64,000 bases of DNA from Mobula hypostoma (GCF_963921235.1 NC_086097.1:74588001-74652000); one strand, 5' to 3'; shown: positions 12,833 to 62,722, counted from the stretch's first letter. Program-made: numbers and translations. The notes: generated by a model from the letters alone, not told the origin.

Positions 12833-13040
12833 AAACACAAAATAATCTGCAGATGCTAGGGTCGAAGCAACACTCACAGCACGCTGGAGAATCTCAGCAG
12901 GTCGGGCAGCATCCTTGGAAAAGATTGATCGACGTTTCAGGCCAGAATCCTGACGAAGGGTTCCGGCCCGAAACGTCGACCAATCTTTTCCACGGATGCT
13001 ACCTGACCTGCTGAATTCCTCCAGTGTGTTGTGAGCGTTG
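12833..13040. mobile_element. Palindromic Penelope-like pseudo-LTR insertion with hammerhead motif
   Basis: TSD atattggtgtattgt (12818-12832) / atactggtgtattgt (13041-13055). Inverted arms of ~80 bp at 12868-12947 and 12961-13040. Confidence 0.85.
12946..12982 (+). ncRNA. Minimal type I hammerhead ribozyme motif (core intact, stem I shortened)
   Basis: CTGACGA (12950-12956), A, GGG-ttccgg-CCC, GAAA (12970-12973), CGTC, then gac. All core nucleotides are present and stem III is the self-complementary ACGT. Confidence 0.7.
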
Positions 13041-13792
13041 ATACTGGTGTATTGTTGTACATGGTACTTGACATTACTTTCTCTTGATTTTGCTGGAAAT
13101 TTGACAAGCGGTAAAATGAATTGCCAGCTCAGACCTGCAGGTTAACAACAAGCAAGCTGTCTTAAAGTTGCCTTCTAACAATTAATATGGGGAATTTTAA
13201 CTACCATACCTTGCTCTTGTTATATTGTTTAAAGTGATATTTCAGGCTGATGCTGTTATTTGGTGTGATAGGATATACGTGTGTAACTACTCAATAGCTC
13301 GAGCACCATCTGTAGAGAGAGAAACAATGTTTCAGTACAGTTAATTTTTCACAAAACTGGGGGGAATCAAGCAGTGTAATTTATCAAGGGCTGCCATGGA
13401 AGGACAGGGAGAACCAAAGATCAAGTTCCATAATTGGCTAAAAGTCAGAAAAGTCTAAATGATACAGGAAAATATAGTAAAGTGGAAATGAGTATTGAAA
13501 TGGGACAAGAAGATGGGTTCAGAATTAGAAATAGAAATGGCATAAATTATACCTATCTAAATGTATGAATATCGGAAATTATCTTAGGTTATTGTATGAA
13601 CATTCAGTTGAGATTATTATGTGTCTAATTAAGTTAAGATGTGCTAAGTTACTAACTTGAGCTATTCGGCTCCACTGGGAAAATAAAAGGCTCAGAATGA
13701 GAAATTGGCTTGTAGGCGCTGTTAGGGCATATTCTGGGGTTAGGGTATATACCAAATATTAACTTCACCAGCAGTCAATTTTCGGACATGAA

Positions 13793-13896
13793 CCTTGCTG
13801 AATCCTGCTGAAGGGTCTTGGCCCAAAACATCGACTACTGCTTTCCATAGATGCTGCCTGGCCTGCTGAGTTCCTCCAGCATTTTGTATGTTTTGC
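13793..13896 (+). mobile_element. Penelope-like pseudo-LTR fragment inserted in the ERV 5' LTR (hammerhead core mutated)
   Basis: Absent from the 3' LTR. TSD ttcggacatgaa (13781-13792) / ttcgggtatgaa (13897-13908). Core reads ctgctgaagggtcttggcccaaaacatcgac. Confidence 0.85.
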
Positions 13897-14286
13897 TTCG
13901 GGTATGAATGTGGATTGTAAATTTAAAATGTAGCCCAAAACAATAGATTTTTTTTCCTGGAGCTGTGGACTGAAGTTGAATGCAAACCAGACAAGGCTGA
14001 TTAACATTCATTTTGGGTGTCTGGAGTCCAGGCGCAAAGAAGGAGGTGAATGAAAACTGTGTGCAATTCCAAAGGAAGCACTGTAGAAGCATTTCAACTA
14101 TAGAATTGTCCTGCTGTTACCTTTGATCTTTAGCATATAAAAATGTCATGTAATATTGGGTTGGGAGGCCTCTTCCTCCAAGAGTGTCTCAATGTGATGC
14201 CTGCTGCTCACTTTTGTGAATAAAACACACTTTTCTATTCACTAGTTTCAGTGGCTCTCCGGTGACTTTGATCACGTTACAACATT

Positions 14287-14304
14287 TGGGGGCTTATCCA
14301 GGAT
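14287..14304 (+). promoter_or_regulatory. tRNA-Pro primer-binding site
   Basis: 15/18 match to the MLV-type PBS TGGGGGCTCGTCCGGGAT; all three mismatches are transitions at CpG sites. Located 2 nt after the LTR end. Confidence 0.85.
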
Positions 14305-14587
14305 ATCTTCGTAACTTATCCTGTGGACAGTAATCTCAGCAGCTTAAGTGGGTTTTAAAATTAGCACTCACACTCTGACCTGTTCAGGTCAGTGACTACA
14401 GGACCATGAGGTACAAAACCACAGTGGAGAACTGTGCTGGCAGATATAAAAGTAGGGTGGTGTGTGTGCATGTATGTATGTTTATGGAAGAGACGAGACA
14501 TTTTTGTGCGACCTGGGCGAGACAGGGCCTCCAGTTGCAAAGGGTGGCTACTGACCGTTCAGAATGCCAGTGTGTACTTGTTTGGGG

Positions 14588-17900: not shown

Positions 17901-19051
17901 TATTTGATTAGATCCTCTTGAAAGTTTGGTCTCCCCTGGAACAAATTTATTTTTGTCCAGGAGGGACATGAGGAGGGGCTGTTAGGGCATATTCTGAAGT
18001 TAGGGTACATAGCAAATATTAACTTCATCAGCAGCCAATCTTCAGACTCAAATGTGGATAGTAGATTTAATTTAAAATGTAGCCCCGAACAATAGTTTTC
18101 CTGGAGCTGTGGACAGGCGTTAATTACAAACCAGACAATGCTGATTAACATTAATTTTGGGTGTCTGGGCTGTGAGTGCAAAAGAGGTGTGTGGAAACTC
18201 TATGTAATTCAAAGGAAGCATTGTAAGTACATTGTAAATAAAGAATTGTCTTGCTGTTACCTTTGATCATTAGCATATAAAAATGTTATGTAATATTGGG
18301 CCGGGAGGCTTCTTCCTCCAAGAGTGTCTCATTAAGATGCCTGGTGCTTGTTTTCGTTGAATGAAACACACTTCTATATCCATTAGCTTCAGTGTCTCTC
18401 CCTTGTTCATGTTACAACAGGTACAATGGAGGATTATAATACTTGTAAAGCTATCGTCCACTCTATTTGTGGTTTCCCCAGTCTATGGTGAATGGCAAGT
18501 GTATTTAAGTGCTGTTGGCGCATGGTCAGTGGGAACGGAAGAATTAAGGGAAAATACTTGGGAAGAGATGAGAGTGTTGGATAAGTAGATCACCTGCAAT
18601 GCTAAAAGCTGTGGAAATAAACTTGTGTGGTGCTTGCATTGTGCTGTCAGTGATAGAGCATCATAGTTAGAGAGGAAGGGAACGATGAGGATTTTATCAT
18701 TATTCCAGTTATGAACAGAGTGAATAAAGAGTGAAAAATGGAACAGACACAGCTGAGCGCTCTCTCAAGTACAGCGGAGGGGAATAGTCCTCAAATTAAA
18801 GGAAAGAAAAATAGCTCAGGAGAATTGTTGTGGAAAGAGGAATTGCCAGAACATATGAAAAGGTCAAGAGTATCTAGAAAAAAGTTAATAAATATAGAAG
18901 TGACATAGCTGAGGAGTTGATGGTTAATAATATATAATAGTTAAAAGTCTCTCCTAAAGATCATCTAATGGCACGAGAGGATTGAAAATTGGAATAAAAT
19001 TTCTTCAATCTTTTGAGAACAGGTCAAATGTGGAAAGCAGCATCAATCAAT

Positions 19052-19750
19052 TGGTAGAGTGGAGGAGCAGAGGGATCTCGGGTACATGTCCACAGATCCC
19101 TGAAAGTTGCCTCACAGGTAGATAGGGTAGTTAAGAAAGCTTATGGGATGTTAGCTTTCATAAGTCGAGGGACAGAGTTTATGAGTCGCGATGTAATGAT
19201 GCAGCTCTATAAAACTCTGGTTAGGCCACACTTGGAGTACTGTGTCCAGTTCTGGTCACCTCACTATAGGAAAGATGTGGAAGCATGGGAAAGGGTACAG
19301 AGGAAATTTACCAGGATGCTGCCTGGTTTAGAAAGTATGCATTATGATCAGAGATTAAGGGAGCTAGGGCTTTACTCTTTGGAGAGAAGAAGAATGAGAG
19401 GAGACATGATAGAGGTGTACAAGATAATAAGAGGAATAGATAGAGTGGATAGCCAGTGCCTCTTCCCCAGGGCACCACTGCTCAATACAAGAGGACATGG
19501 CTTTAAGGTAAGGGGTGGGAAGTTCAAGGGGGATATTAGAGGAAGGTTTTTCACTCAGAGAGTGGTTGGTGCGTGGAACGCACTGCCTGAGTCAGTGGTG
19601 GAGGCAGATACACTAGTGAAGTTTAAGAGACTACTAGACAGGTATATGGAGGAATCTAAGGTGGGGGCTTATATGGGAGGCAGGGTTTGAGGGTCGGCAC
19701 AACATTGTGGGCCAAAGGGCCTGTACTGTGCTGTACTATTCTATGATCTA
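19052..19750 (+). mobile_element. Well-preserved 3' end of a CR1 LINE
   Basis: Open ORF 19148-19690 (LYKTLVRPHLEYCVQFWSPHY...RGDMIEVYKI...TRGHGFK...FFTQRVVGAWNALP) followed by a CR1-type 3' UTR ending ctattctatgatcta. Confidence 0.92.
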
Positions 19751-21110: not shown

Positions 21111-21238
21111 GTAAGAGGTAGAGACAAGTAACATAACTGAAAGCTCGGAGAAAAGGGCTTAGAATTCTCATAGATGCATCACATTGCAACGGGGTGTCTA
21201 TGAATACGATCAGTTTCTACACACAGCAAACTACATTA

Positions 21239-21873
21239 CAGGTTGAGTACCCCTTATCCGAAATGCTTTGGGCTGGAGGTATTTTGGATTTTGGAATGTA
21301 GTATAGACAGCGTAGGATCACCATAATTTCCGACTTTGAATTTACATGCTACTGGTCAACAATCTTTGTCTTACTCTTTTTCATGTATTGATGTAGCTGT
21401 TCATTTGTGTTGGATTTACAGCAGTGACGACCTTGGACCTCATTCCACATTTCTCTGCTGCTTCGTGATCAGATTCTATATCACCATAAATCTTTAAAAC
21501 AATGCCATGCCTTTTCTTAAATTTTTGTAACAGATCTGCTAAATATTCACAATCACTTTCAATTTTCAGTTTGTTGTGATAGATCTTTACTTGTTTCATG
21601 ATCAGTGTACCAGTAAGTGGCATGTATTCACCTGGATGCTGATGAACCCACTTTTTCAAGATATGATTGAGATCTTCATTCTTTTGCTTTATGAAATGTT
21701 TTTCTATTTTTCATTAACTTCCATTCAATACGTATGTGAGGTCACTTCTCAGAACTGTCTGCTGCGCAGAGAACTGTGCATCGCTTTGAAAGTTTCCCGG
21801 TGCCTTGTGGAATTTTTCATTTGTGATGTCATGTCAGTTCTCAAAACATTTCATATAAAGGGTACTCAACCTG
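21239..21873 (-). mobile_element. Non-autonomous Tigger/pogo DNA transposon
   Basis: Terminal inverted repeats CAGGTTGAGTACCC / GGGTACTCAACCTG with TA on both sides. CENP-B-type HTH remnant LQKFKKRHGI (ORF 21381-21659). Confidence 0.9.
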
Positions 21874-21888
21874 TATGAGCAAAGGGGT

Positions 21889-22180
21889 AACGCACAAAAA
21901 TACTGGAAGAACTCAGCAATTCAGCTAGCATCTATGGACAGGAGTAAACAGTCAACATTGTGAGCTGAGACCTTTCTTCAGGACTGTAAAGGAAGGAGTC
22001 AGAGCCCTTGAAAGAATAAAAGCTAAGCAAATGTAATCCTTTCCTCCCCCACATTCTTGTTCTGGCTTCTGCTCCCATCCTTTCCAGTCCCGATGAAGGG
22101 TCTCAGCCCAAAATGTCACTATTTACTCCTTCAGCATGTTATGCATGCTGCTCAAGAGTTCTAGCATCTACAGAATTTCT
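21889..22180. repeat. Degenerate inverted pair of Penelope-like pseudo-LTRs
   Basis: Left arm ...cagtcaacattgtgagctgagacctttcttcaggactg is inverted relative to right arm ccagtcccgatgaagggtctcagcccaaaatgtcact; both hammerhead cores are mutated. Confidence 0.75.
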
Positions 22181-22694
22181 GGTGATTATGATACACATAG
22201 AGATGATCTCTTTTAGGTTATTGAGCTGAATTTCTACTTTTCTTCAGTGAAGGAAGAGCGGAATCCTTTAACTTCTCTCTGACAGTTCAGAATTCCATCA
22301 GTCCTGCACTGGTAGACTTAGCAGAAGAGAGAAGTAGAAAGGAAATGGAGAAAATCTTAGCAGAACAAACAGTTAATGACGAAAAAGTTAGTGAAAGCTA
22401 GCACACTAAAGTGCTTGGAAGACACCTCTGGCCCAGGGAATAGGTTTTTTTAAAAAAAGGAATAATTCACTTGAAATGGAGAAGAAACAATTTTGCCAGG
22501 TAGTTGATAGGTGTAACCAGATTGGGGGAGAGGGGTGTAGAATGGAGGAGAGATGGAACCACACAGAGGAGAGGTGAACAAAAGAAGAATAAACATTTGA
22601 GGATAAATGACTCCGCGTTTGAGGAGAACACCAGTGGTGTCGTTTTATTCAAATTTTTGTTCCAAGCACATACCTCCATGCCATTCCACCCTCC

Positions 22695-25600
22695 CCCCCC
22701 ACACTGAATTCTTTCTCTACTATATCAATAACTGCATAAGTTCTGCTTTCTCCACTTGTGGAACAAATCAGCTTAACACTTTTATTACTAATGTAACTCT
22801 CAGTTTGGCTAGAGGCTTAATCTAGTGGAAGACAGCCCTCGGCCTGGCCAAACTTAAGAAATCTTGTTTTGGTGGATGCTGCGTGATGTGTCCCCTGTTA
22901 CAAATCAGTACCCCAAAATAACAAACAGTACACAATATGTGATTAAACTATTTAGCTTTATATGGTTAGTAAAGAAACAAAAACAAGAAAAGGGCCCATT
23001 CTCATGAAACAGTCTAATGCGCAATGTTGGAGCTCATGGTTCAGTCCACAGGTTTCCCGTCGACCTCCTCCGAGCGTTGCCGACCCTCGGACTCTCGCTC
23101 CAAGTCCACTCTGTCCAGCAGTCTACCAACTCTCTCCATTCCCGTCTTCTCTCCTCATCTCTCCCTGACAAAAGATGTGAAATCCCTGCTCCCAGATCCA
23201 CAAGAAAGAACAATAACCCTCTCACTGGATAGCCGCACATTCCAAAACCCCATTATATCTCGTCATAACCCAAACATAGCTGCTACAAAGAAACCATTAC
23301 GTTAGCAGTGAAACCTTACAGCGTGTTACACTCTTCCCCCATCAAATTTATTCATGTCCTCATGACATTGAGCTAATTTGCCAACCCTTCCTGCAAAACA
23401 TAAAGTCCAATCCAGGTGTAAAAGACAGTAACGTAGCTCCCCAACATGGTAGGGGTCACACTCTGTTCCCCTGGTGCTACGTAGACCTTCCTATCCGGTG
23501 GTCTCCCAATTCTCTGAGACCTCCGTACCCCCTCACCTAACTCTTCAGGTTCAGACACTACTGGGGATACTTCCGGTCTACCTGGCGAGGCCTCCCCCAA
23601 CCTATCACTCGTGCCCACCTGCAACTCGGACCTCTTGGTCCCGTGGCCAAGCCCCCCCCCGCCGTTTCATCCCTTGCAGGGTCCCACTGCAAACAACACT
23701 GTCCACGTATAGCCCCCTCCCTTCACCTGACTCTGCGGGAGAAGGGCTGGAAGTCTCTTCCTCAATCAATGGGGAGTTAGCAAAAGGCAGCATATACCAC
23801 CCATCCTCCGAATCAGTATCCCTCACAGGGGTGGGGGCTGGCCTAACCTCTCCTGCTGTGGGCCCTGCAGTTGCCCTGCATTTCTGCAGAGTCCTCGGAC
23901 TAGGTGTAGTCTCCAAGTTGGGCTCTGGGTCTATCTGCACCTCTTGTCCCAGGGGCAGCTGGTGATTCTGGTGGAGAATCTTGACAGGTCCATTCCCATC
24001 CTCTGGTTTCACCCAGAAAACTTGTAGGTTTGGCATTTGACTCTCCACCACATAGGGCTTAGCAGCCCAATGGTCCACCAACGTATGTTTCCTAGGTAGC
24101 CCCAAATTCCTTATGAGGACAAGGTCTCCTAGCAGGAGTTGGGAGAACATCATCTTTTGATCATACCTCCTCTTATTTCCTTGATTCTGCTTGGCAGCCG
24201 CAACCCCAACTAATTCATAAGCCCTTTACAGCTCTCTACTCATGTCAGACACATACTTCAGATAAGTCTTCGGTGGTAAGTTGCCCTCGTCAGTTCCAAA
24301 GCAAAGGTCAATGGGTAACCTCACGCCTAACCATCAGATAGTATGGCGAGTACCTGATAGCTTCATTTCAGGTACAGTTGTAACTGTGGACCAGATGTCA
24401 AATGTGTTGACTCCACCTGCTCTTCTTGCTGATCTCCAAGGTCCTGAGCATGTCTAGCAAAGTCCGATTAAACCTCTCAGGCTGGAGGTCACCCTGCGGA
24501 TGATAGGGCGTGGTCCTCGACTCCAAGCACGTCCAGTAACTCATTGTTGAGTCTGTTCTCGAAATCCCATCCCTGACTATGTATCCGCCTGGGAAGGCCG
24601 TAATAAATGAAATACTTCTCCCATAACACTTTGGCCACCGTGGACGCCCTCTGGTCCTTGGTAGGAAAAGCCTGTTCATATCTGGGGTGGTAGTCCGTGA
24701 TGACTGGCATCGGGTTCTATTGACAGGAAATCCATACACACCAGGTCCAGGGACCCTGCACTCTGTAAGTGGGACAAGGGAGCTGCCGGCATAGGCAGTG
24801 TCTTCCGTCGTATGCATCAAATGCATGACTTGCGGTATTCTTCGACCTTCGACTTCATTCAGGGCCAGTAAAATCATCATGAAGTGACTTCAGCACAATT
24901 CTCCGATACTTCTCCGGCAGAACCAGATGGTAGCGCTGAGGTCGGTCCGGGGATGACGTGACCCAGTATAGGATCTGGTTTCGCAACTCCAACCGAGGTC
25001 ATTCTCTCAGTAATGGAGGCATCGCCATGTGTTTCGTCTTCTCTACCTGACCAATGTCTTTTCAACCGCTGACCAAATGATACTGATGCCTGGGTCATCT
25101 CGCTGAGCAGCTGCCACTTCCCCAGACCTCAATTCTGGCAGCTGATTTGTCTTCCGAGCAGTCAGGTTACAGTAAACTTGGGGAATGGCGTCATCAGAAG
25201 CTCCCAGTTGATCCACAGCTCGATCCTGCCCCTCCTTTCCCTCTGCCTTCATGGTGATGGCAAACTGACAGATGGCTTTTACCCCTGGGGCAGGAACACT
25301 TTCCCACTCCTCGTCCCTGTCTAGTCTCTCATGCGCCCGTCGGGACAAAGCATCTGCATCGATGTTCCTGCTTCCTGGCTGGTACCTCAGGCTGAAATCA
25401 TAGGCAGACAACGCTGCCAACCACCGATGGCCTGTGGCATCCAGTTTTGCTGAGGTCAGGATATAAGTTAAGGGGTTGTTGTCCGTTCTCACCTCAAACT
25501 TGGCCCTGTAGAGGTAGTTACTCAGCTTATACACCACTGCCCATTTCAATGCCAGAAATTTCAACTTGTGCGTGGGATAGTTTTTCACAGAGGGCGACAG

Positions 25601-26950
25601 ACTCTGGCTGACAGAAGCAACGGGCCTCAACCCGGTGCCCTGATCCTGATACAGGACGCCCCCAAGCCCTCTCAGCTGGCATCTGTGTGCAGTATATACG
25701 GCAATTGGGGGTCCACAAGAGCCAGCACCGACAACTCTGTCAGCGATTGAAAGGCCTCCTCACATTTTTCATCCCACCTTGGTCCAAAGGGCCGAATATT
25801 TCTAGTGGCTTATTCTAGGGGAAGACAGCCTTGGCCTGGCCAACCTTAAGAAATCTTGTTTGGGTGGATGCTGCACGATGTGTCCCCCAATCAGTACCCC
25901 AAAATAACAAACATTACACAATATGCGATTAAACAATTTAGCTTTATAATTCTTAATTTGACTATATGGTTAGTAAAGAAACAATAAAAAAAGAAAAGGG
26001 ACCATTCTCATGAAACAGCCTAACGTGCAACTTTGGAGCTCACGGTTTAGTCCACTGGTTTCCTGTTGACTTCCTCCGAGCATAGCCGACCCTCAGACCC
26101 TTGCTCCAAGTCCACTCTGGAGTTGGCGGTCTACCAACTCTCTCCATTCGCGTCTTGTCTCATCTCTCCCCGGCAAAAGAACGTGAAATCCCTGCTCTCA
26201 GACACACAAGAAAGAAAAATGTCCCTCTCATTGGATCGCTCCACATTCCAAAGCCCAGTTATCTCTAGTCATAACCCAAATTTTGCTGTGACAGATAAAC
26301 CATTACATCAGCAGTGAAACCTTACAGCGCATTACACTAACTAACAATCTATTCTCTAATTTATCTGGACTATCTCTGACACTTCTTTTTCTGTAAAGAC
26401 AGACTAGCCACTGACATCTTCTGCAAACCCACTGACTCCCACAGCTAATCTCATCCTGCCTCCTGAAAGGATACCAATATTTTTTTCCCAATTCTTTTTC
26501 TCAGTTCTGCATCTGTTCTTAAGATTTTGACTTCTGAAATGTCCTGCTTCCTCTTTATACATGGCTTCTCTGCCACAAATGACGGAACCCTCGCATGCGT
26601 TTCCTTCATTCCTCACACATCAGTTCTCATCTCACCCCACTTCCCTGGACAGAACTGTGACAGACTTTCCTTGCTTCTACTCTCACCACACCAGCCTCTG
26701 CATCCAACATATCATTCTTTGCTATATCTGTCAGCTACAATATGATCATACCAGTCTGTAACTTCTCTCTCGCCCGCTTTCTGGTGACTCCACTTTCTTC
26801 TAGTTGCATGTCATTTTACTCTCCAACATGAACCTGCTGTCCTCAAACTTTGTCCATTGCTGTGGTGATTATTACAATATCTCATATTCTGCACCGATAA
26901 CTTCCAACTCAGTGGTGTGAACATTGAATTTTCCAATTTGACATTTTAAG
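22695..26950 (+). mobile_element. Degenerate Penelope-like element RT region (22695-22791 and 26337-26950), split by a Gypsy insertion
   Basis: EFFLYYINNCISSA (a decayed LFLRYIDDCIGA-type motif) precedes the insertion. After it come DRLATDIFCKPTDSHS and HHTSLCIQHIILCYICQLQYD, typical of the PLE RT C-terminal region. Confidence 0.7.
22792..26336 (-). mobile_element. Internally deleted Ty3/Gypsy LTR retrotransposon
   Basis: LTRs 22792-23330 and ~25802-26336. Perfect 4-bp TSD CTAA (22788-22791, 26337-26340). Polypurine tract on the minus strand (ctcttccccc, 23331-23340). RNase H-like NYPTHKLKFLALKWAV...VRTDNNPLTY and integrase [25 protein letters not shown] remnants. Confidence 0.92.
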
Positions 26951-28584: not shown

Positions 28585-28620
<36 letters not shown>

Positions 28621-31025: not shown

Positions 31026-31093
31026 ATATTACAAAATTGTGAAGAGCTTCAATAACCAATCTGGACTCGTGCACTAACATTTATACAGTCATT

Positions 31094-31231
31094 CCATCCT
31101 GAAGAAGGGTCTCGGCCTGAAACGTCGACTGCACCTCTTCCTACAGATGCTGCTTGGCCTGCTGCGTTCACCAGCAACTTTGATGTATGTTGCTTGAATT
31201 TCCAGCATCTGCAGAATTCCTGTTGTTTGCG
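31094..31231 (+). mobile_element. Short Penelope-like pseudo-LTR insertion with hammerhead motif
   Basis: TSD tttatacagtcatt (31080-31093) / tttatacattcatt (31232-31245). Core CTGAAGA-A-GGGtctcggCCT-GAAA-CGTC-gactg starts at 31099. Confidence 0.85.
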
Positions 31232-32162
31232 TTTATACATTCATTGTTTGCTTTTAAAACCAGAGAGCTAGAGTTGTATTTGTTCTGTTTAGTACTTTTT
31301 CAGTGTGAAGAAGACTAGCCAAAAATAAAACTTAAAATCTTTTTTTCAGATTTATATACTTTTATACCAAAGTTATGTGTGTCTGGATTGTAGTTGGACA
31401 ACACAATAGGAGGTCTCAGGTTCAGATTCACTTACTATCACGTGTACAATAAAACACGCAACAAAATGTTTCGTTTATGTTAACAACCAACGCAACCTAA
31501 GGATATGCTGAGAGCAGCCCACAAGTGTCAACACACGTTCTGGTGCCAACATAGCAAGCCCACAATGTTCAGCAAATCAACAGCAACAGAATAAGTCCCT
31601 TGACTCCACCAGCAGATTCACACAGACAGGCCTCCAACCCCAGGAAAGGCCGCCACCAGGCCTTGCACCTCCAGTCTCTCGCCTCCAGTCTCACAGATGT
31701 TGAGCCGGTTACTTCCAGACCCACCAGTTTGGGTCAATTCACCAACCTGGCTGAGGGAGAGGGGTCATCCCGGTTCATACTGGAAAACTCACAGATGTCA
31801 GGCTTCTTGACTTAAAGAAGACATACCGACCCAGGTGCTTTGAACATAGGGCCTCAACTTCTGGACTCACCAACTTAGGTCTTTGACCTTTGGCATTGAG
31901 CTGGGGACTTGCTGATCACATGACTTAGAAATCCAGGCGTCGAACTCTGGACTTGTGTGGACCTCCAACTCTGGGACTCAGCAACCTGAGGAGTCACCAG
32001 TCTTCATCCAATGGGCCCGCTGACCTGGCATCTGTCCATGGAATCACTGGCCTTCTACCACGGAGCACTCCGACCTGTACTCTAGCTCATGCCCTTGTCT
32101 TTTCATTTACTGACCCTGATCCTTTAACCTCTAATTCCCTTCATCCATGTCCCTAAAACCTA

Positions 32163-32265
32163 GGTTTGAGTCAGTCCTGACGAAGGGTTCTGGCCCGAAA
32201 CGTTAAGTGATCATTTCCACGGATGCTGCCCGACCTGGTGAGTTCCTCCAGCGTGTTGTGAGTGT
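32163..32265 (+). mobile_element. Short Penelope-like pseudo-LTR insertion with hammerhead motif
   Basis: Perfect 13-bp TSD tccctaaaaccta (32150-32162, 32266-32278). Sequence tcagtc-CTGACGA-A-GGGttctggCCC-GAAA-CGTT-aagtga at 32171-32210. Confidence 0.88.
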
Positions 32266-33221
32266 TCCCTAAAACCTAACTCAAACCTAAAAAAAACTAC
32301 TGTTTGCGCCACAGACTAGACGGACAATGCAGCTCAGCACTATCTTGATGGTTCCTGTACTGGTGTTTCGAAAAGGCTTTCCATCAGTTGTAGAGATGTA
32401 CAGCACAGAAACGGGTCCTTGGGCTCTTGTGTCCACTCCCAATCTTTTACCTTCCCCCCCCTTTGTGCCAAGATTCAGTGAAAAGTGTGTTTTGCACACT
32501 GTTTATGCAGATTATATCATTGCACAGCACATTGAGCTAGAAGAAAGTAAAACAATAACAATGCTAAATAATGTGTAAAAGCTACCAAAAAAGTGCAGTG
32601 CAGGTAAACGAAAAGTGCAAGATCATTATAAAGTAGATTGTGAGGCAAACAGTTCATCTGATCATGCAAGAAGTCCATTCAAGAGTCTGATAATGGTGGT
32701 ATAGAAGCTGTCCCTGAGCCTGGTGGTACATGCTTTCAGACTTTAGTATCTACCCGATGGGAGAAGAGAGTATGTCTGGGGTGGGTGGGGTCTTTGATTA
32801 TGCTGGCTGTTTTACTGAGGCAATGAGAAATATAGACAGAGTCCATAAAGGGGAGGTTGATCCTCATGGCAGTTAACTCCTCCTTCTTAATACTGACTTT
32901 TACCTCTCCATGAAATCACTGTCTTCCATATTCACCTTGGTCAATACTGATGGTAAGGTCATTTAGGACCTTCCCATATAGTCTAATTTTACTCATAGAT
33001 TACCTGTTTGGTATTCAAGGGAACCACTCTTTCCCTGGGTAACCTCTTTCTCCTGATATACCTACAGAATTTATTGGGATTCTCCTTACTGTAGGTTATC
33101 AAGGATATTTCATGGCTCATTTTTGCTGCCTTTTTTATGTTCTCCCCTGTAAGCAGATTCTTCAAAAGACTTTCTGGGATCCATTTTCCTTTTCTTGTCA
33201 TATGTTTCCCATTTCATGATC

Positions 33222-38900: not shown

Positions 38901-40578
38901 TCAGGCAGTTCCTACCTTTGTTCCTAAGACGTTTTTTGATAGAATAAATTCTATAATCTTATCTTATATTTGGAATAATGAAAATCCTAGATTGAGTAAA
39001 ACTTTATTACAGAAATTAAGAAAGAATGGTGGTATGGCATTGCCAAATTTTAAAATGTATTATTGGGCAATTAATATTCGATATATTACTTTTTGGACTC
39101 ATTACTCAGACATAAATGAATGTCCTTCATGGTTGGATTTGGAGGAAAACTCGGTGAAGGGGTTCTTTTTGGCCTCTTTACTGGGAGCTCCTCTTCCTTT
39201 TTTGTTCTCTAAGATTAGTAGACAAGACTTTAATCCTATTAATAAACACACTTTAAGAATTTGGTTTCAGTTTTGTAGATTTTTTGAGTTAAATAATTTT
39301 GTTCTTTCTAGTAACATCCATTTTAATTATTTTTTTAAACCATCAATTTTGGATACGACCTTTTTAATTTGGAAAACCAAGGGAATAACAACTTTTTCAG
39401 ATTTGTTTTTGCGGGACTGTTTAATGTCTTTTTCTCAGTGAATAAATATGGTTTACCTAATGTATATTTCTTCAGATATTTACAAATTAGGAATTTTTGA
39501 CGTGGTTTGCTGCCAAATTACCCTTCTGCTTATCCACCTAATATGACAGATGCTCTTTTTCAGCTTAAACCACTTCAAAAAGGGTTGATAGCTATAATTT
39601 ATAAACGGATATTGAACTTACGAATGATATCTAACGATAAAATTAAATGTGCTTGGGAATTGGAAGTTCAAGAGTCATTTTCAGATAGTCAATAGAGTGA
39701 AATTCTTCATTTGGTTAATAACTCATCTATTTGTGCCCGTCATTCCTTGATACAGTTCAAGGTAGTGCGTCGGGCACATATGTCAAAGGATAAACTAGCA
39801 CGTATTTTTTCCAACATCAATCCTATTTGTGACAGATGTAATAATGAAGTGGCCACTTTAACTCATGTGTTTTGGTCTTGTATAAAGCTAGACAATTTTT
39901 AGAGAGATGTTTTTAAAACATTATCAAAAGTCTTGGATCTGGACCTACAACCTAATTTACTTCCAGCAATATTTGGGATTACCCCATCAAAACCAGGAAA
40001 TATTCCTGTTTCTGCTCAACGTATGATAGCCTTTTTAACTTTATTGGCTAGGAGAGCCATCTTACTGAAGTGGAAGGATTCTAATCCACCTACTGTCTTT
40101 TATTGGCTTTCCTCCATTAAGTCCTGTTTAAGTTTAGAGAAAATAAGTCGGACATTTGATACATCCTTTAAATTTGAGCAAATCTGGCGACCTTTTGTTC
40201 AATATTTTCATTTGATGTGATTTATTACTCTAACAATTTTTTTTGAAGTTTTAGATTTGATCAGAAAGTCTTTCTTTTTTTTGGTCGTATCCTCAGAATG
40301 GACTGCCCAGTCCCCCTTTTTTTTTGTATAGTGTAGTGGGTTTTTTTTTTCTTCATTTAAAATTCAGAGTTTTTTCTTTCCTCTTCATGAACTGATAAGA
40401 GGAGAATTAGCTGTTTTCTTTTTTATTGTATATTACATACTAGTTTAACACTATGTTTGATTTTGATAATGTCTATTTCAATCTCTGTATTGTTATTGAT
40501 ATATATTTGAGATAATTCTCCTCTTGTTTGTATTTATGTTCCTTCCAAATCAATCAATAAAAAGATTAATAAAGAAAG
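35925..40578 (+). mobile_element. 5'-truncated L1-clade LINE ORF2, nested in CR1
   Basis: Perfect 13-bp TSD taaaagaatccta (35912-35924, 40579-40591). Motifs SLDAEKAFDRVEW, RQGCPLS, LYADDLL, CDRCNNEVATLTHVFWSC; tail aataaaaagatt. Same family as 7369-9425. Confidence 0.93.
36074..37752 (+). mobile_element. Internally deleted Tigger/pogo DNA transposon, nested in L1
   Basis: Termini CAGGTGTCCCC / GGGGAAACCTG flanked by TA. N-terminal MSSKVSAKPKRARKGVTHSIKLDVIKRFDRGE (from 36334) is followed by acidic C-terminal EDNVEEVLASHDQELIDEELMQL. The L1 frame QILNI|PKIS rejoins across the insertion. Confidence 0.92.
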
Positions 40579-41470
40579 TAAAAGAATCCTAAAGTAAGAG
40601 TGATCATAATACGATTGAATTCGCCCTGATTTGGAGAAGGAGAAGCTAAAATCAAATGTATCAGTATTACAGTAGAGTAAAGGAAATTACAGAGGTATGA
40701 GAGTTACAGTAATTGGAAAAGGAACACTGGCAGGGATGATAGCAGAGCAGCAATGGCTGGAATTTCTGGAAGTAATTTGGCTGACACAGGATATACGTAT
40801 ATCCCACAGAGGAGGAAGTATTCCAAAGGCAAGATGACATGAGCATGGCTAACAAGAGAAGTCAAAGTCAACATAAAAACCAAAGGGAGAGCATATAATA
40901 GAGCAAAATTTAGTGGGAAGTTAGAGGATAAGGAAGCTTTTAAAAACCAATAGAAGGCAATTTTAAAAAAGTCATCAAGAAGGTAAAGGTGGAATATGAA
41001 AGTAAGCTAGCCAATAATATTAAACGAGATACCAAAAGTTTCTTCAGATACATAAAAGTGTAAAAGAGAGGCGGGAGTGGATATTGGACTGCTGGAAAAT
41101 GATGCTGGAGTGGTAGTAATGAGGAACAAAAAATGGTGGACGAACTAAAAAAGTACTTTGCATCAGCCTTCACCATGGAAGACACTAGCAGGAAGTGGAA
41201 GTTCCAGGTGTCAGGGGCCGTGAAGTGTGTGAAGTTACCATTACTTGAGAGAAGGTTTTTGGAAAACTGAAACGTCTGAAGATAGATAAGTCACCTGGAC
41301 GGGATGGTGTATAACCCAGAGTTCTGAAAGATGTGGCTGGAGAGATTGTTGAGGCATTAGTAATGATCTTTCAAAATCACTAGATTCTGGAATGGTTCCA
41401 GAATACTGGAAAATTGCAAATATCAGTCCATTCTTCAAGAAGGGACAGAGGCAGAAGAAAGGAAATTATA

Positions 41471-41824
41471 TTAAGGGATTGGACACACTAGAGGTAGGAA
41501 GCATGTTCCCGCTGATGGGTGAGTCCAGAACCAGAGGGCACAGTTTAAGAATAAGGGGTAGGCCATTTAGAACGGAGTTGAGGAAAAACTTTTTCACCCA
41601 GAGAGTGGTGGATATATGGAATGCTCTGCCCCAGAAGGCTGTGGAGGCCAAGTCTCTGGCTGCTTTCAAGAAAGAGATGGATAGAGCTCTTAAAGACAGT
41701 GGAATCAAAGGTTATGGGGATAAGGCAGGAACTGGATACTGATTGTGGATGATCAGCCATGATCACAGTGAATGGCGGTGCTGGCTCGAAGGGCCGAATG
41801 GCCTACTCCTGCACCTATTGTCTA
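41471..41824 (+). mobile_element. Short CR1 3' fragment inserted in the RT region of the host CR1
   Basis: Host ggaaattata|ggccagttagtc (GNYRPVS) is interrupted by KGLDTLE...TRGHSLRI...FFTQRVVDIWNALP and a 3' UTR. Confidence 0.85.
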
Positions 41825-45464: not shown

Positions 45465-48400
45465 TATGTAGATTGACTTTCTTGCTTTGTCAATTATACC
45501 CCTAGACTTAAAAACACTTTCTATTAATGAGTATTAATTTAAACATGAATATATTTATAGATATTTGTTAATTCTATGTCCGCCTGGTTTAGTAGAAAAT
45601 AGAAGAGAATTCCACTTCCTGATGTTGCAGAGACACATTATATAACCTATGTATCTTTCATGAAAAGGCTTCCTGGAATGCAGTCACCCTATCATGAAAG
45701 TAATGGGCTGGTTCCATGAGAATATGTAAAATATTCCCTTTTCTACCTTTGTCTCCGTTAAGCCAAGCCTCTACTCCGGTTTAAGCTAAGTTTTTACTTC
45801 CAAGTATACATGGAACAAAAACAGCTAATGCCCAATGGAATGCATCAATGACATTGAGACTGTAATGAAGCCTCTTGTGTTCTACACAGAATAGTTTGGA
45901 AACTTTCATTGGGAAAAAATAGTATGAGAGGAAAGTTGTTCTATATGACAAATTCACCAATGCCAAAGTTTGCTTATAATATTTTTGTTTGCCCCAATGT
46001 ACTAGACTGCTGAATTGCTGAATGATCTTTTACCATTACACGCTATATTGAATGTATGTTTACAACTCTTATTTATACCCCATAGGAGCTTCCTCCTGTT
46101 TTTTCATCTAACCTCCATCAGAGTCTGTTTCTCATTCATGCTAATTCAGCAATGCAGCTCTGCAGTTCAGCACAACTGCTTCTTGCGGTAGACAATTACT
46201 CATTCTCATAAGGAAAGGTGTTTCTCTTGAATTAAGTAAGCAATCCATTAAGACCGAATATTGTTTTATTTCCCTTCCCAGCATTTAATCTCCTTAACTG
46301 CCTTTCAAAATGTATCGGTGAACTACTTTCTTGTACTGCTTTTGTTCTTCTCGCTATTTTCTGGCAAAGATAGTCCCACAGTGTTATTGAGTAGGGAGTT
46401 GATGGATTTAGATTAGTTGTCAATGACAAATGACATATATTTCCAAGTCAGAATGGTGTGTAACCTATTGGGAGCTAGCAGTTGATGATATTCCTAATTA
46501 TTTGCTTTTCTGAATCATTTTTGATGATAGGGTCACAGATCAGGGTGGTGTTGCTGGTAGTAGTTCAGGTGAGTAACTGTTGTGTATTTTGTAGATGACA
46601 CACATAGCAACAATGATGTGCTGCTGATAAGTAAATAGTGATATTTTTAAGGTACCAATTAAGAGGGCTGCTTTTCTCGGGGTGGTGTTAAGCTTTAGTG
46701 TTGAAGCTTTATAAGACTTCTTTTGAAGTCTTTGAAGTATTTTGAGCAGTTATGGACCCCAGGAAGGATGTGTTAGCATTGGAGCGTGTCCAGAGGAGGT
46801 GAGCAAGAATGATCCTGGGAATGAAGGGCTATGAGGAATGTTTGATGGGTATACTCTAGGCAAATAGTCTGTGTTCTATCACACCTCTGACACCTTGTAG
46901 CAATGGTAGTTTTGGAATGTGGGAAACCATCACTTACCACAGGGTGCCCAACTCCTGACCAACTGTTGCAGACACAGTATCGATACAGGTTGTTCAATTG
47001 AAGTGCAGGTCCGTGATGATCATTGGGTATTGACTGTGGGCTAAAGCCATTGACTATAAAGGTTTTCTCTTGCTGATTGTTGCTTGGCAACTTTGCCACC
47101 CTTCTGAATAACAGTTGCCACCTATTGATCCATGCCGTCATGATGACTAGATCTTTCTAAGTGTAGACATTTGCTGAGGAGTTGCAAATTTAATCCAGTC
47201 TTACACATTGAATTCACTTCTGACATGACGGAAGAGATCCATTTATGCGACTGAAGATGGGCAGACTAAGGATATTGCCCAGAGAAACTCCTACTTTAGT
47301 GATTGACTTTCAGCATTCATAACCAATTTCTGAAGATGAAAAAGATGCCAAAATGTAGAACAAAAATCAGAATGCTGTAAGAACTCAGTGGGTGAAGCAG
47401 CATTTACGTAAGCAAGAAGTGTAAAAATATTTTGCATTGAGACGTTGCATCAGGAAAGAGGGAATGGGAAAGGTAGCCAGCATGCAACGAAATAAAGTTG
47501 AAGGGTAGAATAAAAGGACAGGTGACCGGAGACCACTGGGCTGTGAGTACTGAAACTAGAAAATACAGTGTTCAGACAATTTGATTGTAAGCTAGGCAAG
47601 TGAAATATGAGGTGTTGTTAAGAAAGGCCGTCCTGGTGGGATGGACGAGTATAAAGTCTGGGGATTCATGCGTATAGATGAGCTGGTTGGCATCAGGGAA
47701 CTGGAAGATCTCAAAATGCTGAGAAATATGAGAATCATTCTGGAGGTAAGTGAGAAGGGACTGGACAAGGCGAGATAGAATATAGCCCGGATATGAAAAA
47801 AATGAATTCAGTCGGCAAGAGCAGACAGAAACAATAAGTCTATCGGGGCACCACTGTTTGAGGATTCTGGGTAAACAGACATTTTAGGTTGGGACTCTAT
47901 AAGGTTGGAGGCTGTGAATGTGAGATCTTGATCTTTCCTGATTGGTAACATCTGGGAGATAATGGCCTGGGTTTCCATGATAGGCTCATGGTCCAGAGCA
48001 CGTGACCTGTTGTTCATTGGTAGGATCATGGTCCAGATGAAGGTATGAAGAGGTGCTAGAAAACTGACATCTGGCCATTGCAAAGTTAAGTGGTACTGGT
48101 AAAGTGAATATTGAGTAATAGTGTATGGATCATTAGAGAGTAAGTGCTGCTTGATTTGCTGTTTAATATATGTACCTTTCATTTTTTGGTGACGATTGGG
48201 AGAGTAACTGCGAGAAGTAATAAGTAAGATTAGATATGTCTTGTTTTAGTGAACAGGACATACTTGTCCAATTTTTCCACAATGTTAGGTAAATGCGAAT
48301 AATGCAACTGTAATAGAACAGCTTGAGTTAAGATGTGGTTCATTCTGAAAACAAGTTTCAAGTGTTATAGCCAAGATATTTACTGATTCCATAACTTATG

Positions 48401-51601: not shown

Positions 51602-54490
51602 TAAGACATAAGAGCAAAATTAGGCCAGTTGGCCCATCGTGTTTGATCCACCATTCAATCAGGCTGATTCTATTTTCATTCTCAGCCCCATTCTCTAGCC
51701 TTCTTCCAGTAAGCTTTGACCCCCTTACGAATCAAGAACTTATCATCTCCATTTTGAACATATCCAGTGACTTGGCCTCCACAGCCTTCCGTGGGAATGA
51801 AATCCACAGATTCACCAACCTCTGGCTAAAGAAGCTCTTCCTCGTTTCTATTCGAGATGGAAGTCCTTCTTTTCTGAGGATATTCCCTCTCACTATTGGA
51901 AACCATCCTTTCCATGTTCATTCTACCAGGCCTTTCAATACTCAGCAGGATTCAGTGAGATTTTGCTCTCATTCGTCTAAATTTCAGCAAGTACAGGCCC
52001 AGAACAATCAAATGCTTGCTCCTCATATCCCTTCATTCCTGTGGTTATGTTTGTCAACCTCCTCTGTTCACCTCCCCTCTCCAATGCCAACACATCCTTC
52101 CTTGGATCCGGGGACCCAAAGCTGCTGACAATGCTCCAAAAGTGATCTGAACAATGCCTTTTAAAACTTCAGCAGTACATTCTTGCCTCTATATTTCAAT
52201 CTTCTCGAAATGAATGCTAACATTGCATTTGGTTTCCTTACTTTTACTTAACTGCAAGGTAACTTCTAGGGAATCCTGCACTAGGACTCGCAAATCCCTT
52301 TGTACCTCTAATTTTTGAATTTGCACCCAGTTTAGAAAATAGTCCACGCTTTTATTCCTTCTAGTAAAGTGCATGACCATTCAGTTTCCTTCACTGCATT
52401 GCATATGCCACTTCTTTGTCCATTCTCTTAATCTGTCGTTCATTCTGCAGACTTCCTCCTCAACCCTACCTGATTCTCCACCTACCTTTATATCATCCGT
52501 ACACTTATCCACAAAGCCATCAGTTCCATCATTCAGATGATTAACATATGATATGAAAAGTAGTGGACCCAACATCAGCCACTGTGGAACATCACTAGAC
52601 ACTGGCAAAAAATCAGGAAATGATCCCTTTATTTCCATTCTTTGCCATTTACTAGTCACCCAGTCTTCTTTCCACGCTAACACCTTTCCTGTAATGTCAT
52701 GGGCTCCTATCTTGTTTAGCAGCCTTGTGTGGCACTTTGTCTGAGGCCTTCTGAAAATCCAAGTAAGTAACATCCACTGACTCTTGTTTGTCTATCTTAC
52801 CTGTTATTTCCCCAAAGAATTCCAGCAGATTTGTTGGGTTAGATTTCCTCTTAAGAAAACCATGCTGACTTTGACGTGTTTTAACATGTGCCTCCAAGTA
52901 CAGTCAGCCCTCCTTATCCGCGAGTTCCACATGCGCAAATTCAACCAACCGCGAAACAAGAAAACCTGGAAGTGCTCTTCCAGCACTTGCTGTTGGAGCA
53001 TGCACAGACTTTTTTTTTCTTGTCATTATTCCCTAAGCAATGCAGTATAACAACTATTTTACATAGCATTTACATTGTATTAGGTATTATAAGTAATCTA
53101 GAGATGATTTAAAGTATACGGGAGGATGTGCGTAGGTTATCATGGATCGGGATTGAAAAAAAACCGGATGTTCTCTTACTAAGTAAGTAGGAACAGGTAC
53201 ATCTGGTATTATTTAGCGTCAGTTAGTCAAACGGTTGTCTTAGTGTATAGTATATATTTTACCTTTCTATACATATAAAATACTTAAGAAACGCATGTTT
53301 CAGCGCCGGGCTCGGGAACAGAAGTTCCCGAGTTCAATCCAGTGACAGATCGCTCTCGAACACACTTTTCATCCGTGCTGGGTTGATGTGGAGGATCAAA
53401 AACCCAATAATTAAACCATTGCGTTGCTTAGTAATAATTGTAGCTTTAATCAGGCAGGGCCTTTCTCATCTTATCCTTTAAAATTGTTCCGATCATTGAC
53501 CGACTGTAGCCTACCGCTTTTCCAATGACCGATAGCGTTTCACATCTTTCTGATTGCTTTATTATTTCCACTTTATTTTAAATGGCGATCGTGATCATTT
53601 TCGTGAAAGAAACACTGCGGATTCAGAGCTCCGCCGCCAGGTCCTAATGCCCACCGCACTAAGACAGGTTAAATAGGGTTTGGGGTTCCGCTGGGTCCTA
53701 AGGTCCACCACATTGAGACAGGTTGAATAAGGGACTTGAGCATCCGCGTTTTTTGGCATCCGCGAGAGGTCCCAGAACTAGTCCCTTGCGGATAAGGAGG
53801 GCCGACTGTACTCTGAGATCTCATTCTTAATAATGGACTCTAAAATCTGAAGTCAAGGCTAACTGGCCTATTATTTCTTGTTTTTTGGCTTCCCTCCCTT
53901 CTTAACGAGTGGAGTGACATTTGTGATATTTCTAGTCCTCTGAAACTATTCCAGAATCAAGTTCTTCTTGAAGTATCATCACTAATGCCTCCACAATCTG
54001 TTCAGCTACCTCCTTCAGAAACCTAGACAGTAGTCCATTTGGTCCAGGTGACTTAACCACCTTCAGACCTTTCAGCTTCCCAAGCACCTTCTGCTTTGTA
54101 ATGGAAACTGCACTTACTTATGCATACTGTCTCTCTCAATTTTTTGGCTTGTTGCTGGTGTCTTCCACAGTGAAGTTTGATACAAAATACTTAGTTTGTC
54201 CACCGTTTTTTTCCCCATTACTGTACTAGATCTCTGGTGTCATTTTCCAGTGGACAAATGTCTACTGTTGCTTCTCTTTTATTCTTGTATATCTGAAAAA
54301 ACTTTTACATTATTGCCCAGTTTACTTTCATATTTCATCTTTACTCTCCTTTTTGTTTTTTTTTTAAGTTACCTTCTGCTGGTTTTTAAAAGCATCCCAA
54401 TCCTCTAGCTTCCCACTAATTTTTCTTAAATGCCCTCTTTTTTGCTTTTATGCTGTCTTGACTTTCCTTGTCTGTCATGGCTACCTTCGT
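51602..54490 (-). mobile_element. Degenerate CR1 LINE ORF2 and 3' end, split by a Tigger-like element
   Basis: RQSQHGFLKRKSNPTNLLEFF...TYLDFQKASDKVPH and SDVPQWLMLGPLLF remnants; 3' terminus taagacataagagc. Confidence 0.88.
52901..53808. mobile_element. Non-autonomous Tigger-like (MER2-group-like) DNA transposon
   Basis: Terminal inverted repeats cagtcagccctccttatccgc / gcggataaggagggccgactg (20/21) with TA duplication at 52899-52900 and 53809-53810. Confidence 0.9.
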
Positions 54491-54559: not shown

Positions 54560-54860
54560 AAGATTAACTTTGTCACTTGTATATTGAAACATACAGTGAA
54601 GTATGAAGTCTTTGATCCCAATGACTAATAGTCTGAGTATGTACTGGTGGCTCCCCGCCAGTGTTGCCATGCTTCCTGTGTCAACGTAGCATGTTCACAA
54701 TTTACTAATCCTAACCTGTACTACTTTTGAATATGGGAGGAAGCTGTAGCACTTGGAAGAAACCCACATGGTCACAAAGAGGATGTACAAGCTCCAGCAA
54801 TGGGAATCGAACCCTGATTACTGCTGCTGTAATAGTACCATGCTAACCGCAATGATACCC
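54560..54860 (-). mobile_element. V-SINE-like tRNA SINE
   Basis: Antisense head tgctaaccgc and gggaatcgaaccc (B box); core ggaagctgtagcacttggaagaaacccacatggtcac. Confidence 0.7.
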
Positions 54861-60800: not shown

Positions 60801-62628
60801 AACCGGCAAGCATTGATTTTACAATTGTTAATTCTCTTGTGTGACCACTGCCGTTAGTAAGAAAATAGAACTTATAAAAAGTGGTTGAACTAAACCCATC
60901 TCTAATGTCTTTGTTCTCTTCATTATATTTAGGATTAGGCCTAGGTGTCTCAGCCCTTCAAATGTATTCTGTTATTCAATGATATCTTGGCTTAACTGCA
61001 TCCACCTTCTTTTGTTCCCAACCTTTTCCCTTGCAAAGTATGTGGATCTGATTATGAAATGACTCAGCAACTGCTTTTTGGAGGGTATGACTTCAACACA
61101 AATGCCATTCCTTGCAAGAAGATACGTATTTGAAATTCTCTTCTGGATGGCCTAACTTTGATAAAAAGTTTGCTTTTTTTGTATTTGTACAGTGTATTCC
61201 ATTCAAAATTTTAGAAGCTTTAATCAAATTATTTCTTAGAGAACAGAATCTCTTTTAACTTATTTTAAAATCTGAAAGGGCCTACATGGAGGAAGGAAAT
61301 ATATTTTCACTAATAAAATCCAGTTTTGCAATTACCAAATGTTAATTAGTGTGTTTATTACTGAAATTCTGATCAAACAAGTTAATTAAAAGTAGCGGGG
61401 CAGGGGATGTTGTGAAATTAGGCCTAAACAAAAAAAAATCAGTTTTTGCTGGAGATCAATTTAACCTGTAAACATAATGAGTAGTGATTTTCAAAAATGT
61501 TTGTATTGGTCAAATGGAAACTGGATGTGCCACACCCCTAAGCTTGCAAACTGTCAAACAGTTAGAGTGTATTCAAGCACTTCAGGTGAACATGTTATTT
61601 AAAAAAACTGTAAAGGTTAGAATTTAAAGAAAACACTCAAGCACTTGGAAGTACTTAAAATGATTAAATTGCTTTAAATTTACCTCTTTACCTTACACCC
61701 ATTCATCTTCATTGAAACGAACAGAATGACTGAATCTGCGTTAGGTCAAACCTGGCACAGGTTCAATAGATATATTACGCAACGTAATTGCTGGGAAACT
61801 GCAGGAAGCTGGCACTTAATGTCAAAATGGTTGGGAGAATAGGAGTGAAAACTTGTTGGGCAGTTAGAAAGCCGGCACTTCCACTTCATCTTCTGGCATT
61901 TTTCAGAAAAACTTAGACCATTGTATGCAAACTTCTAGATTATTTCACAAATTAAAAATAGTGGAACATAATTTTTAATACCGAGAATAACCTGCCTCTA
62001 TCAAAGTTCTGAGAAACAAAAATGTACATGAATGTCGGTAAAATAAGAGATTTCTAAAGCAATGAAGTATCAAGATTAATGTTGTGACCCACTTTACATC
62101 AGAAATTGTGTTGAGCTACACTAGTAGAATGGTGATTTATCTTTGTAGTCATTTGTGGTATGATGCTCAAACATTAATCCTCTAATTTAGTCAGCTAGGG
62201 CACAGCATCTTTGTTAATAATGTTTTGAAACCAAATAGTGACGCATCATCTGAACACAAGACAAAACTGCAGATGCTAGAAAAGCAAAATAAAAATGCTG
62301 GAAAATCTCTGCATATCAGACAATATCTGTGGAAAGAGGTGCTTATATTTTCCACCATTTTCTGGTTTTATTTATCATCGAAACACCAGTTTATCCAGGG
62401 ACGTCTCAGCCGATAATGATATGTTTGAGTACTTGCAAAAACAGAGGTGAACTGTGGCAGCACTTTCTTTAACAAATATATTATAGAATATGATGCTAGA
62501 TAAAACCTGAATATTGGCTGAATTATTGTTGCTGGCATTATGGTCCCTGAAGATTTAAATTGCAGGATAGGCATTCTTGGAAGTAACCCTCTCTCACTAC
62601 TCCCCCTCTGTGCCTCATCTTTTTTTTC

Positions 62629-62722
62629 TCCAGTCCTGCTGAATGATCTCGGTCTGAAATGTCGACTGAGTCCATAGATGCTGCCTGGCCTGCTGAGTTC
62701 CTCCAGCATTTTGTGTTTGTTA
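62629..62722 (+). repeat. Penelope-like pseudo-LTR copy, hammerhead core mutated
   Basis: cagtc-ctgctga-atgatctcggtct-gaaatgtc-gactg followed by tccatagatgctgcctggcctgctgagttcctccagca; stem I (cagtc/gactg) is intact. Confidence 0.8.

Follow-up and report, generated by a model that had tools for sequence, protein, structure and literature searches.

Minimal hammerhead ribozymes were described in 2014 from the pseudo-long terminal repeats (pseudo-LTRs) of metazoan Penelope-like elements (PLEs) (Cervera and De la Pena 2014, PMC4209133), and their role is stated to be unclear in the accessible text of an account of endonuclease-bearing (EN+) PLEs (Craig et al. 2021, PMC8557442). For PAc, a Poseidon element of Anolis, the available part of the report describes a protein that extends both target strands and is predicted to form a dimer, and finds that insertion in vitro does not need ribozyme cleavage (Frangieh et al. 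2024, PMC11167929). Animal non-LTR retrozymes are, in the accessible part of a preprint, tandem units that each carry a hammerhead; the same source reports that PLE insertions are mostly truncated at the 5' end and have a single terminal repeat, and its retrozyme survey included one chondrichthyan (Li, Clavereau and Pollet 2026, bioRxiv 10.64898/2026.07.22.740005). Here, we analyze short hammerhead-bearing units in a 64,000-bp stretch of the Mobula hypostoma genome (3.48 Gb), NC_086097.1:74,588,001-74,652,000 (hereafter the window), together with their relatives elsewhere in the genome. The kind of element, a hammerhead-bearing PLE, is known, and what is added here is a measurement of the ends and pairs of its copies. 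The short units are very probably 5'-truncated copies of an autonomous PLE, with the reverse transcriptase (RT) likely halting inside the hammerhead, near the sites at which it starts.

Six hammerhead cores lie on the plus strand of the window (12950, 13805, 22090, 31099, 32177 and 62636), all with the same layout of stem I, CTGANGA, an extra A, stem II, GAAA, CGTC and stem I. A preliminary description of the window had claimed six cores with this layout, and all are present. The core is exact in three of the six listed copies (12950, 31099 and 32177), and inspection of all six agrees with the earlier statement that no copy has both a perfect core and a perfect stem I (0/6). Genome-wide, the core with stem II and three stem I pairs has 13,173 exact matches against 0 for a reversed-pattern control, which excludes a chance origin of the motif, and a 22-mer of the family has 81,860 exact matches. 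Intact copies carry the features of the minimal type I hammerhead: CUGANGA, GAAA, UH, the extra base 9/10.1, stems I and II and a palindromic 15.2-16.2. The earlier picture of a PLE-derived, high-copy family with a minimal type I hammerhead that inserted repeatedly and independently holds at the level of sequence.

Most of the 30 closest relatives of the copy at 32177 extend upstream into a common pyrimidine-rich untranslated region (UTR), and the longer ones continue into GIY-YIG and RT coding sequence. Searching with part of the PLE protein gave 79,165 first-look candidates. One locus, L192, has a hammerhead on each side of a long coding region, and three others (L311-L313) have three hammerheads each, approximately 3.5 kb apart, with one 513-bp step in L313. 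Unbroken frames of 1,043 codons in L312 and L313 match RVT_1 and GIY-YIG, in both cases below the Pfam cut-offs (E 6e-5 and 1e-3 in L312), and a CX2-5CxxC motif can be read in their translation in the Cys linker between the two domains. The parts of the unit follow one another as RT, Cys linker, GIY-YIG, pyrimidine-rich UTR, hammerhead and two alternative 3' ends approximately 35 nt apart. One open reading frame (ORF) holding RT and C-terminal GIY-YIG, tandem or partial-tandem pseudo-LTRs, inverted truncated neighbours and a tail of 30-40 bp at one end (seen here as the spacing of the bimodal 3' ends) characterize EN+ PLEs and are all found, and judged by this anatomy the parent is an endonuclease-bearing PLE. 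The linker motif, taken by itself, suggests the Neptune type; in the accessible text of PMC8557442 it defines Neptune and also occurs in Nematis. The window copy at 31097-31235 is 97% identical over 139 nt to the intact element L312.

Subfamily C, to which the intact 1,043-codon frames and triple tandems belong, is very young, since a 161-bp segment past the tail is 99-100% identical in its 40 best matches (L281-L310, L311-L313). Translation in frame would begin at an ATG close to the short 3' end, so that the tail appears to encode the N-terminus. In four contig sets from four organisms, which we guess to be RNA, the family occurs in 771-2,556 records each, a count from which ends, strand and level are not readable.

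Copies were gathered by anchors wholly 3' of the predicted cut (4,594 and 38,974 exact genome-wide matches), and positions are counted from that cut, +1 being the first base 3' of it. The sample covers 1.37 Mb, of which 0.4 Mb was chosen blind and the remainder lies around listed anchors, and it contains 275 arms (105 of subfamily A and 170 of subfamily C; 48 censored); the blind 400 kb alone holds 82 related segments. The 3' ends are bimodal, at about +55..+72 and +94..+110 in the first 196 arms, and the difference of approximately 35 nt corresponds to the PLE tail. The 5' ends fall inside the 36-base ribozyme (-3..-38) in 107/275 arms, with a peak at its 5' edge, in stem I, and not at the cut site. 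Per kb at risk, we count 26.7 ends at -28..-38 and 13.5 at -15..-27, whereas the rate is 3.0 about the cut itself (from 4 ends) and 1.1-2.2 over -71..-630. Partner arms, which are free of the anchor (n = 129), have 0.4-1.8 ends per kb at +11..+95. Early abortive synthesis was rejected, given that in these 129 arms end rates between the start sites and the ribozyme are at baseline.

The peak is found at -31..-33 in long-tail and short-tail arms alike. Target-site duplications (TSDs) scoring at least 9, mostly 12-15 bp long, flank 35 of the 95 uncensored solos, and 14 of these 35 start at -25..-38, where 0.8 would be expected if starts were uniform; the 5' ends are thus non-random with respect to the motif, as the preliminary description had proposed. 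In genome-wide pattern counts, 3,139/81,860 copies are apparently cut off at -31 (two-base filter), and three-base filters give 445/68,274 at +1, 226/76,384 at +5 and 102/49,992 at -4. Divergence between subfamilies upstream of -33 was considered as an artefactual source of the peak and discarded: it touches few old copies, and the TSD-validated solos retain the peak. A hairpin as the cause of a minor cluster of ends at -51..-62 was unsupported (3/16 versus 5/38).

Many insertions are double. An inverted partner abuts 132 of 227 uncensored arms, and of the 55 pairs for which the sample includes both arms, 54 combine one long-tail and one short-tail arm (expectation 27.5, p 1.5e-15). A single TSD (score of at least 9) encloses 49/55 pairs, and the arms overlap by 1-5 nt at the junction in 20/55. 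In 28 pairs the two arms both end within the ribozyme, in 9 a single arm does and in 18 none does; arm ends within pairs correlate (rho 0.61). The arm that reaches further is the short one in 29 pairs and the long one in 24, and this near equality led us to reject fold-back synthesis as the origin of pairs. The simplest inference is that each pair is a single event primed on both target strands, with one start site used on each.

In the mechanism that we propose, the RT would begin at one of two sites, about 65 or 100 bases 3' of the motif, and stop within it. The endonuclease of the element would cut both target strands with a stagger, as suggested by the 12-15-bp TSDs together with the published PAc biochemistry, and both cut ends would prime cDNA, one per start site, which would explain the 54/55 long-plus-short pairs. 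The two cDNAs would stall together where the observed 5' ends accumulate, in the ribozyme that lies closest to the start sites and above all at stem I's 5' edge, and would then be joined through microhomologies of 1-5 nt, to each other to give pairs or to the target to give solos. Such stubs would be dead ends, and cleavage by the putative ribozyme of the parent RNA would require a dimer or the help of protein. A stall at the ribozyme in this element is likely on the positions of the ends.

Seven observations weigh against this reading or weaken it. The first concerns a second ribozyme upstream, which the RT meets beyond the ORF and which is seen in copies that extend through the body of the element; these were selected for sequence beyond the tail and are the best-scoring, youngest and partly non-independent copies. 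The upstream ribozyme ends only 1/23 copies of subfamily C and 2/18 of subfamilies A and D (a set that includes six near-duplicate loci in two groups), so that stops number 111/265 at the first ribozyme and 3/41 at the second (p about 7e-6, run with 266). Stopping is hence not a simple property of the fold, and both a plain structural stall and a model in which all RNAs start at -32 are disfavoured; the difference would agree with a block peculiar to the region that the protein binds close to the start sites, or with events of two classes that differ in processivity. Second, PAc products in vitro become shorter when the template is truncated at its 5' end, and mutating the ribozyme leaves them as they were, in the accessible part of PMC11167929. 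Third, there is an excess at the cut site, although small (0.65% at +1 versus 0.30% at +5 and 0.20% at -4). Fourth, a few old-subfamily copies within the subfamily-A sample create false ends near -33. Fifth, Rfam scans of the window and of one intact copy returned no hammerhead, only microsatellite-type microRNA matches and noise, likely because the models expect a stem III. Sixth, the covariation of stems I and II that the preliminary description had proposed as a check does not rise above shuffles by any measure (62 distinct rows, one a mis-cut stray). Seventh, a comparison of 20 short solos with 62 long copies of subfamily C (136 of 140 copies kept, those with indels dropped), which bears on whether the short units form a lineage of their own, has limited power owing to its 81 bp and 20 short solos.

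Beside these, 19 of 60 copies that continue into the body (L211-L240, L281-L310) begin at +6..+110, perhaps twice the background, and such starts could mark the 5' end of a cleaved RNA or a block at start-site hairpins.

The alternative that survives best, though we consider it unlikely, keeps the same element but lets some parent RNAs begin at about -32, through an internal promoter start or processing at a tract that resembles a 3' splice site, with an RT that started in the first pseudo-LTR running off the end. The peak is sharp and fixed to a site, and a pyrimidine tract followed by YAG stands there, directly 5' of stem I (-45..-30), in four of the four subfamily representatives, much like a 3' splice site. 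The YCAGT at the peak can also be read as initiator-like. An early RNA start would, moreover, explain the difference between the first and second ribozymes. Drosophila Penelope offers a precedent, with an intron that ends at the 5' end of helix I (PMC4209133, accessible text) and overlaps the internal promoter (PMC8557442, likewise). However, copies that reach the ORF mostly pass -32 of the upstream ribozyme (22/23 in subfamily C and 16/18 in A/D, near-duplicates included), although an RNA beginning at that point would end them, pair arms end throughout -5..-38, and the 95 solos show neither a common upstream exon nor a splice-type join to -30, none of their 8 same-strand joins being of that kind.

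A separate non-autonomous family, retrozyme-like or similar to short interspersed elements, that is transcribed and remobilised by the PLE protein is quite improbable. It would account for the thousands of copies with a nearly common 5' start (the 3,139 at -31) and for the 14/35 TSD-validated solos starting at -25..-38; a derivation of animal retrozymes from PLE pseudo-LTRs is proposed in the accessible part of the 2026 preprint (bioRxiv 10.64898/2026.07.22.740005), and column +7 differs between short and long copies (p 0.02, uncorrected, one of 15 columns). Yet the short solos show no overall separation from long copies (permutation p 0.13), their nearest-neighbour sets include other classes in 17/20 cases, their start positions spread across 14 nt and they use either 3' end. 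Identical 5' ends are also seen in the arms of pairs, and truncation at -29..-31 often destroys stem I, as in the copy at 31099. The 1.37 Mb sampled contained no array of the short unit in tandem; one partial tandem, of 513 bp, exists in L313. The self-standing retrozyme-like family put forward earlier is therefore not supported, as short solos carry the variants of long copies, within the limited power of that comparison, and their ends vary.

Ribozyme cleavage would define the short units if the RT ran off RNA cut after GUC, which we regard as very improbable. At +1, ends occur at 2-3 times the rate seen at +5 or -4, and 71 loci carry perfect palindromes centred on the cut, as blunt joining of two cut templates would give, against 505 occurrences genome-wide of one junction inside the core. 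The window solos, however, start about 30-40 nt upstream of the cut, and ends at -31 are approximately six times as frequent as those at +1. Many of the listed +1 flanks show GAC or GACT microhomology, which prevents the bump at +1 from being assigned to cleavage, and annealing at the 6-bp palindrome would account for the 71 palindromes just as well. For PAc, no reads ending at the cut are reported in the available text (PMC11167929). As the main source of short units, cleavage is refuted by the end positions, and a minor class of such units is possible.

Secondary collapse of long inverted pairs by central deletion after insertion would draw on the general instability of long palindromes and on the correlated arm lengths within pairs, but it is very improbable, given that solos with clean TSDs show the sharpest peak, that the peak is fixed by sequence position and not by arm length, and that long pairs persist (18/55 with neither end in the ribozyme).

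Between the four subfamily representatives, identity is 86-95% in the ribozyme region compared with 49-65% in the upstream 97 nt and 29-71% in the downstream spacer; the ribozyme region is thus conserved relative to its flanks across subfamilies, a check the preliminary description had named, and the contrast points to selection in the parent lineages. An intact core is kept in 78 of 86 sampled young copies of subfamily C, so the earlier suggestion that most copies may be inactive applies to the window and not to these. Energy folding predicts that stems I and II form when the RNA begins at -33. It does not favour a catalytic dimer, the best dimer being an extended duplex, and is uninformative on this point because the core uses non-standard pairs.

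The pyrimidine tract upstream of the ribozyme can pair with GAAGGG of the core and stem II (L312, L192, L026, L150). The resulting rival hairpin is centred near -31, within -50..-15, in four of four subfamily representatives, and the peak of 5' ends falls on its loop. In subfamilies C and D this hairpin is predicted to prevail, with stem I given a probability of 0.02 and 0.00, and in A and B it is not (0.95 and 0.82); in this model it is possibly an off-switch.

More speculatively, and with a probability we would put as low, the minimal PLE hammerhead may serve chiefly as a stop-and-join site rather than a cutter: a protein dimer bound to template RNA would prime both strands, using the two start sites, the RTs would halt together at the protein-bound ribozyme and the cDNAs would be joined there, the two template RNAs perhaps being paired through the palindromic stem III. 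If this is true, the fossil record of around a hundred thousand copies is a direct readout of the PLE integration complex, with one long and one short arm per pair, correlated stops and use of the first ribozyme only, and it answers why barely active ribozymes stay conserved.

In the window itself, the copies follow the same types. A young solo stub (31094..31231, plus strand, subfamily C, long 3' end) has the exact core at 31099, begins at the edge of stem I and is flanked by a 14-bp TSD (31080-31093 and 31232-31245, at most 1 mismatch). Another (32163..32265, plus, subfamily A, short 3' end) has the exact core at 32177, a mutated 3' strand of stem I and a TSD of 13-14 bp (32150-32162 and 32266-32278, at most 1 mismatch). 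An old solo stub of subfamily B (13793..13896, plus; decayed core at 13805) lies within a decayed 12-bp TSD (13781-13792 and 13897-13908, 10/12 matching). The distance from the start of the stub to its core is 5 nt at 31094, 12 nt at 13793 and 14 nt at 32163. The 208-bp unit at 12833-13040 is a head-to-head inverted pair in a 15-bp TSD (12818..12832 and 13041-13055, 1 mismatch): its left arm (12833..12951, minus) is a PLE 3' end of the long, tail-bearing type with its 5' end inside stem II of the ribozyme, and its right arm (12948..13040, plus, subfamily A) has the short 3' end, begins just where the ribozyme does on its 5' side and holds an exact core at 12950-12977 with a broken stem I. The TSDs claimed earlier for four short copies are all present (15, 14 and 13-14 bp with at most 1 mismatch each, and the decayed 12 bp).

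An older head-to-head pair consists of a minus arm with a decayed ribozyme (21888..21996), absent from the preliminary description, and a plus arm (21997..22187) with the decayed core at 22090 and approximately 80 nt of pyrimidine-rich 3' UTR; a TSD was looked for around 21888-22187 and not found. An old subfamily-B stub (62627..62725, plus; decayed core at 62636) has no convincing TSD. Just upstream of it, 28 bp at 62585-62612 match the 5' region of the PLE (96% to L192) and may belong to a rearranged old copy. Also new are an old decayed minus-strand copy at 6112..6269 with a 12-bp TSD (6100-6111 and 6270-6281) and decayed minus-strand fragments of the region 3' of the ribozyme at 47359..47406, 62282..62336 and 62983-63019. 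Minus-strand arms and fragments, at 6145, 12833, 21888, 47359, 62282 and 62983, are hence about as many as the plus-strand ones; the sense-oriented copies described earlier exist, but the apparent bias does not, given that only plus-strand cores had been listed. Instead of the two subfamilies originally distinguished, there are at least four.

The locus of the old solo stub is partly duplicated (13714-14217 and 17974-18357, approximately 80-88% identity), and the insert at 13793-13896 is present only in the first copy, so that the segment at 17974-18187 is an empty-site duplicate. At 47665-48090 (minus) lies an RT fragment of a distantly related, older PLE; it is 38% identical to the intact protein (E 2e-15).

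Exons matching PF14811, which we take to be the CDIN1 family, lie on the plus strand 54-100 kb past the end of the window. No CDIN1 exon was located inside the window by a weak four-motif test, and the CDIN1-intron placement given earlier was thus not confirmed; it is plausible, and would be unremarkable with about 200 segments per Mb and copies on both strands of the window. Decayed fragments of long interspersed nuclear elements (LINEs), presumably L1/Tx1-like and CR1/L2-like from motifs in the ORF list, lie at 7707-9431 (minus), 38173-39441 (plus), 6757-7224, 9320-9999, 19058-19690, 41353-41742 and 52381-52791. At 22837-26338, repeats approximately 3.0 kb apart surround RNase H- and integrase-like frames on the minus strand, which we assume to be a decayed Gypsy-like LTR element, and inverted-repeat pairs of 33-41 bp (21237-21875, 36947-37113 and 52892-53817) are likely the terminal repeats of DNA transposons or miniature inverted-repeat transposable elements.

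The value of the family is that of a test bed, in which tens of thousands of young copies and intact parents make the starts and stops of insertion countable; by these counts, the two RT start sites are likely used once each in every paired insertion, and the ribozyme is where copying ends, mostly off the cut. In LINE-1 twin priming, two target-primed cDNAs are joined by microhomology to give an inversion, the second primer annealing upstream at variable places so that the arms do not overlap. Unlike this, the two PLE arms here have their 3' region in common, and their starts are fixed at two sites. No account of the long-plus-short rule or of the 5'-end pile-up at the ribozyme was found in a literature search from which subscription papers were mostly out of reach, and figure S2 of PMC11167929 (genomic coverage) and the supplements of the retrozyme preprint may already show such pile-ups.

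Cartilaginous fish are not among the animals named as hosts in the accessible text of PMC4209133, and the 81,860 exact 22-mer matches compare with 4,000-9,000 copies reported there for coelacanth and Xenopus; the elements here also differ from those described in their 4-bp stem II and in having no stem covariation within the Mobula genome. Relative to the EN+ Neptune-type PLEs of PMC8557442, whose structures are given in the available part without end statistics, the element here, assigned to Neptune by motif, has clear 12-15-bp TSDs. Its units resemble non-LTR retrozymes in being short, non-coding, hammerhead-bearing and related to PLE pseudo-LTRs, but they are dispersed solos or head-to-head pairs and not tandem arrays (bioRxiv 10.64898/2026.07.22.740005, accessible part). 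There is also a likeness to PAc, as far as the accessible text of PMC11167929 goes: in both elements two RT start sites bound the tail downstream of the hammerhead and the ribozyme cut is not the main genomic end, and the extension of both target strands by a predicted PAc dimer fits the paired insertions seen here. The two differ in that the PAc ORF starts inside the ribozyme, whereas here it starts approximately 60 nt after the cut, and in that a stop at the ribozyme is not reported there for PAc, whereas here ends pile up at it. Finally, PAc in vitro starts alike on both strands, whereas the Mobula pairs have one start of each kind in 54 of 55 cases.

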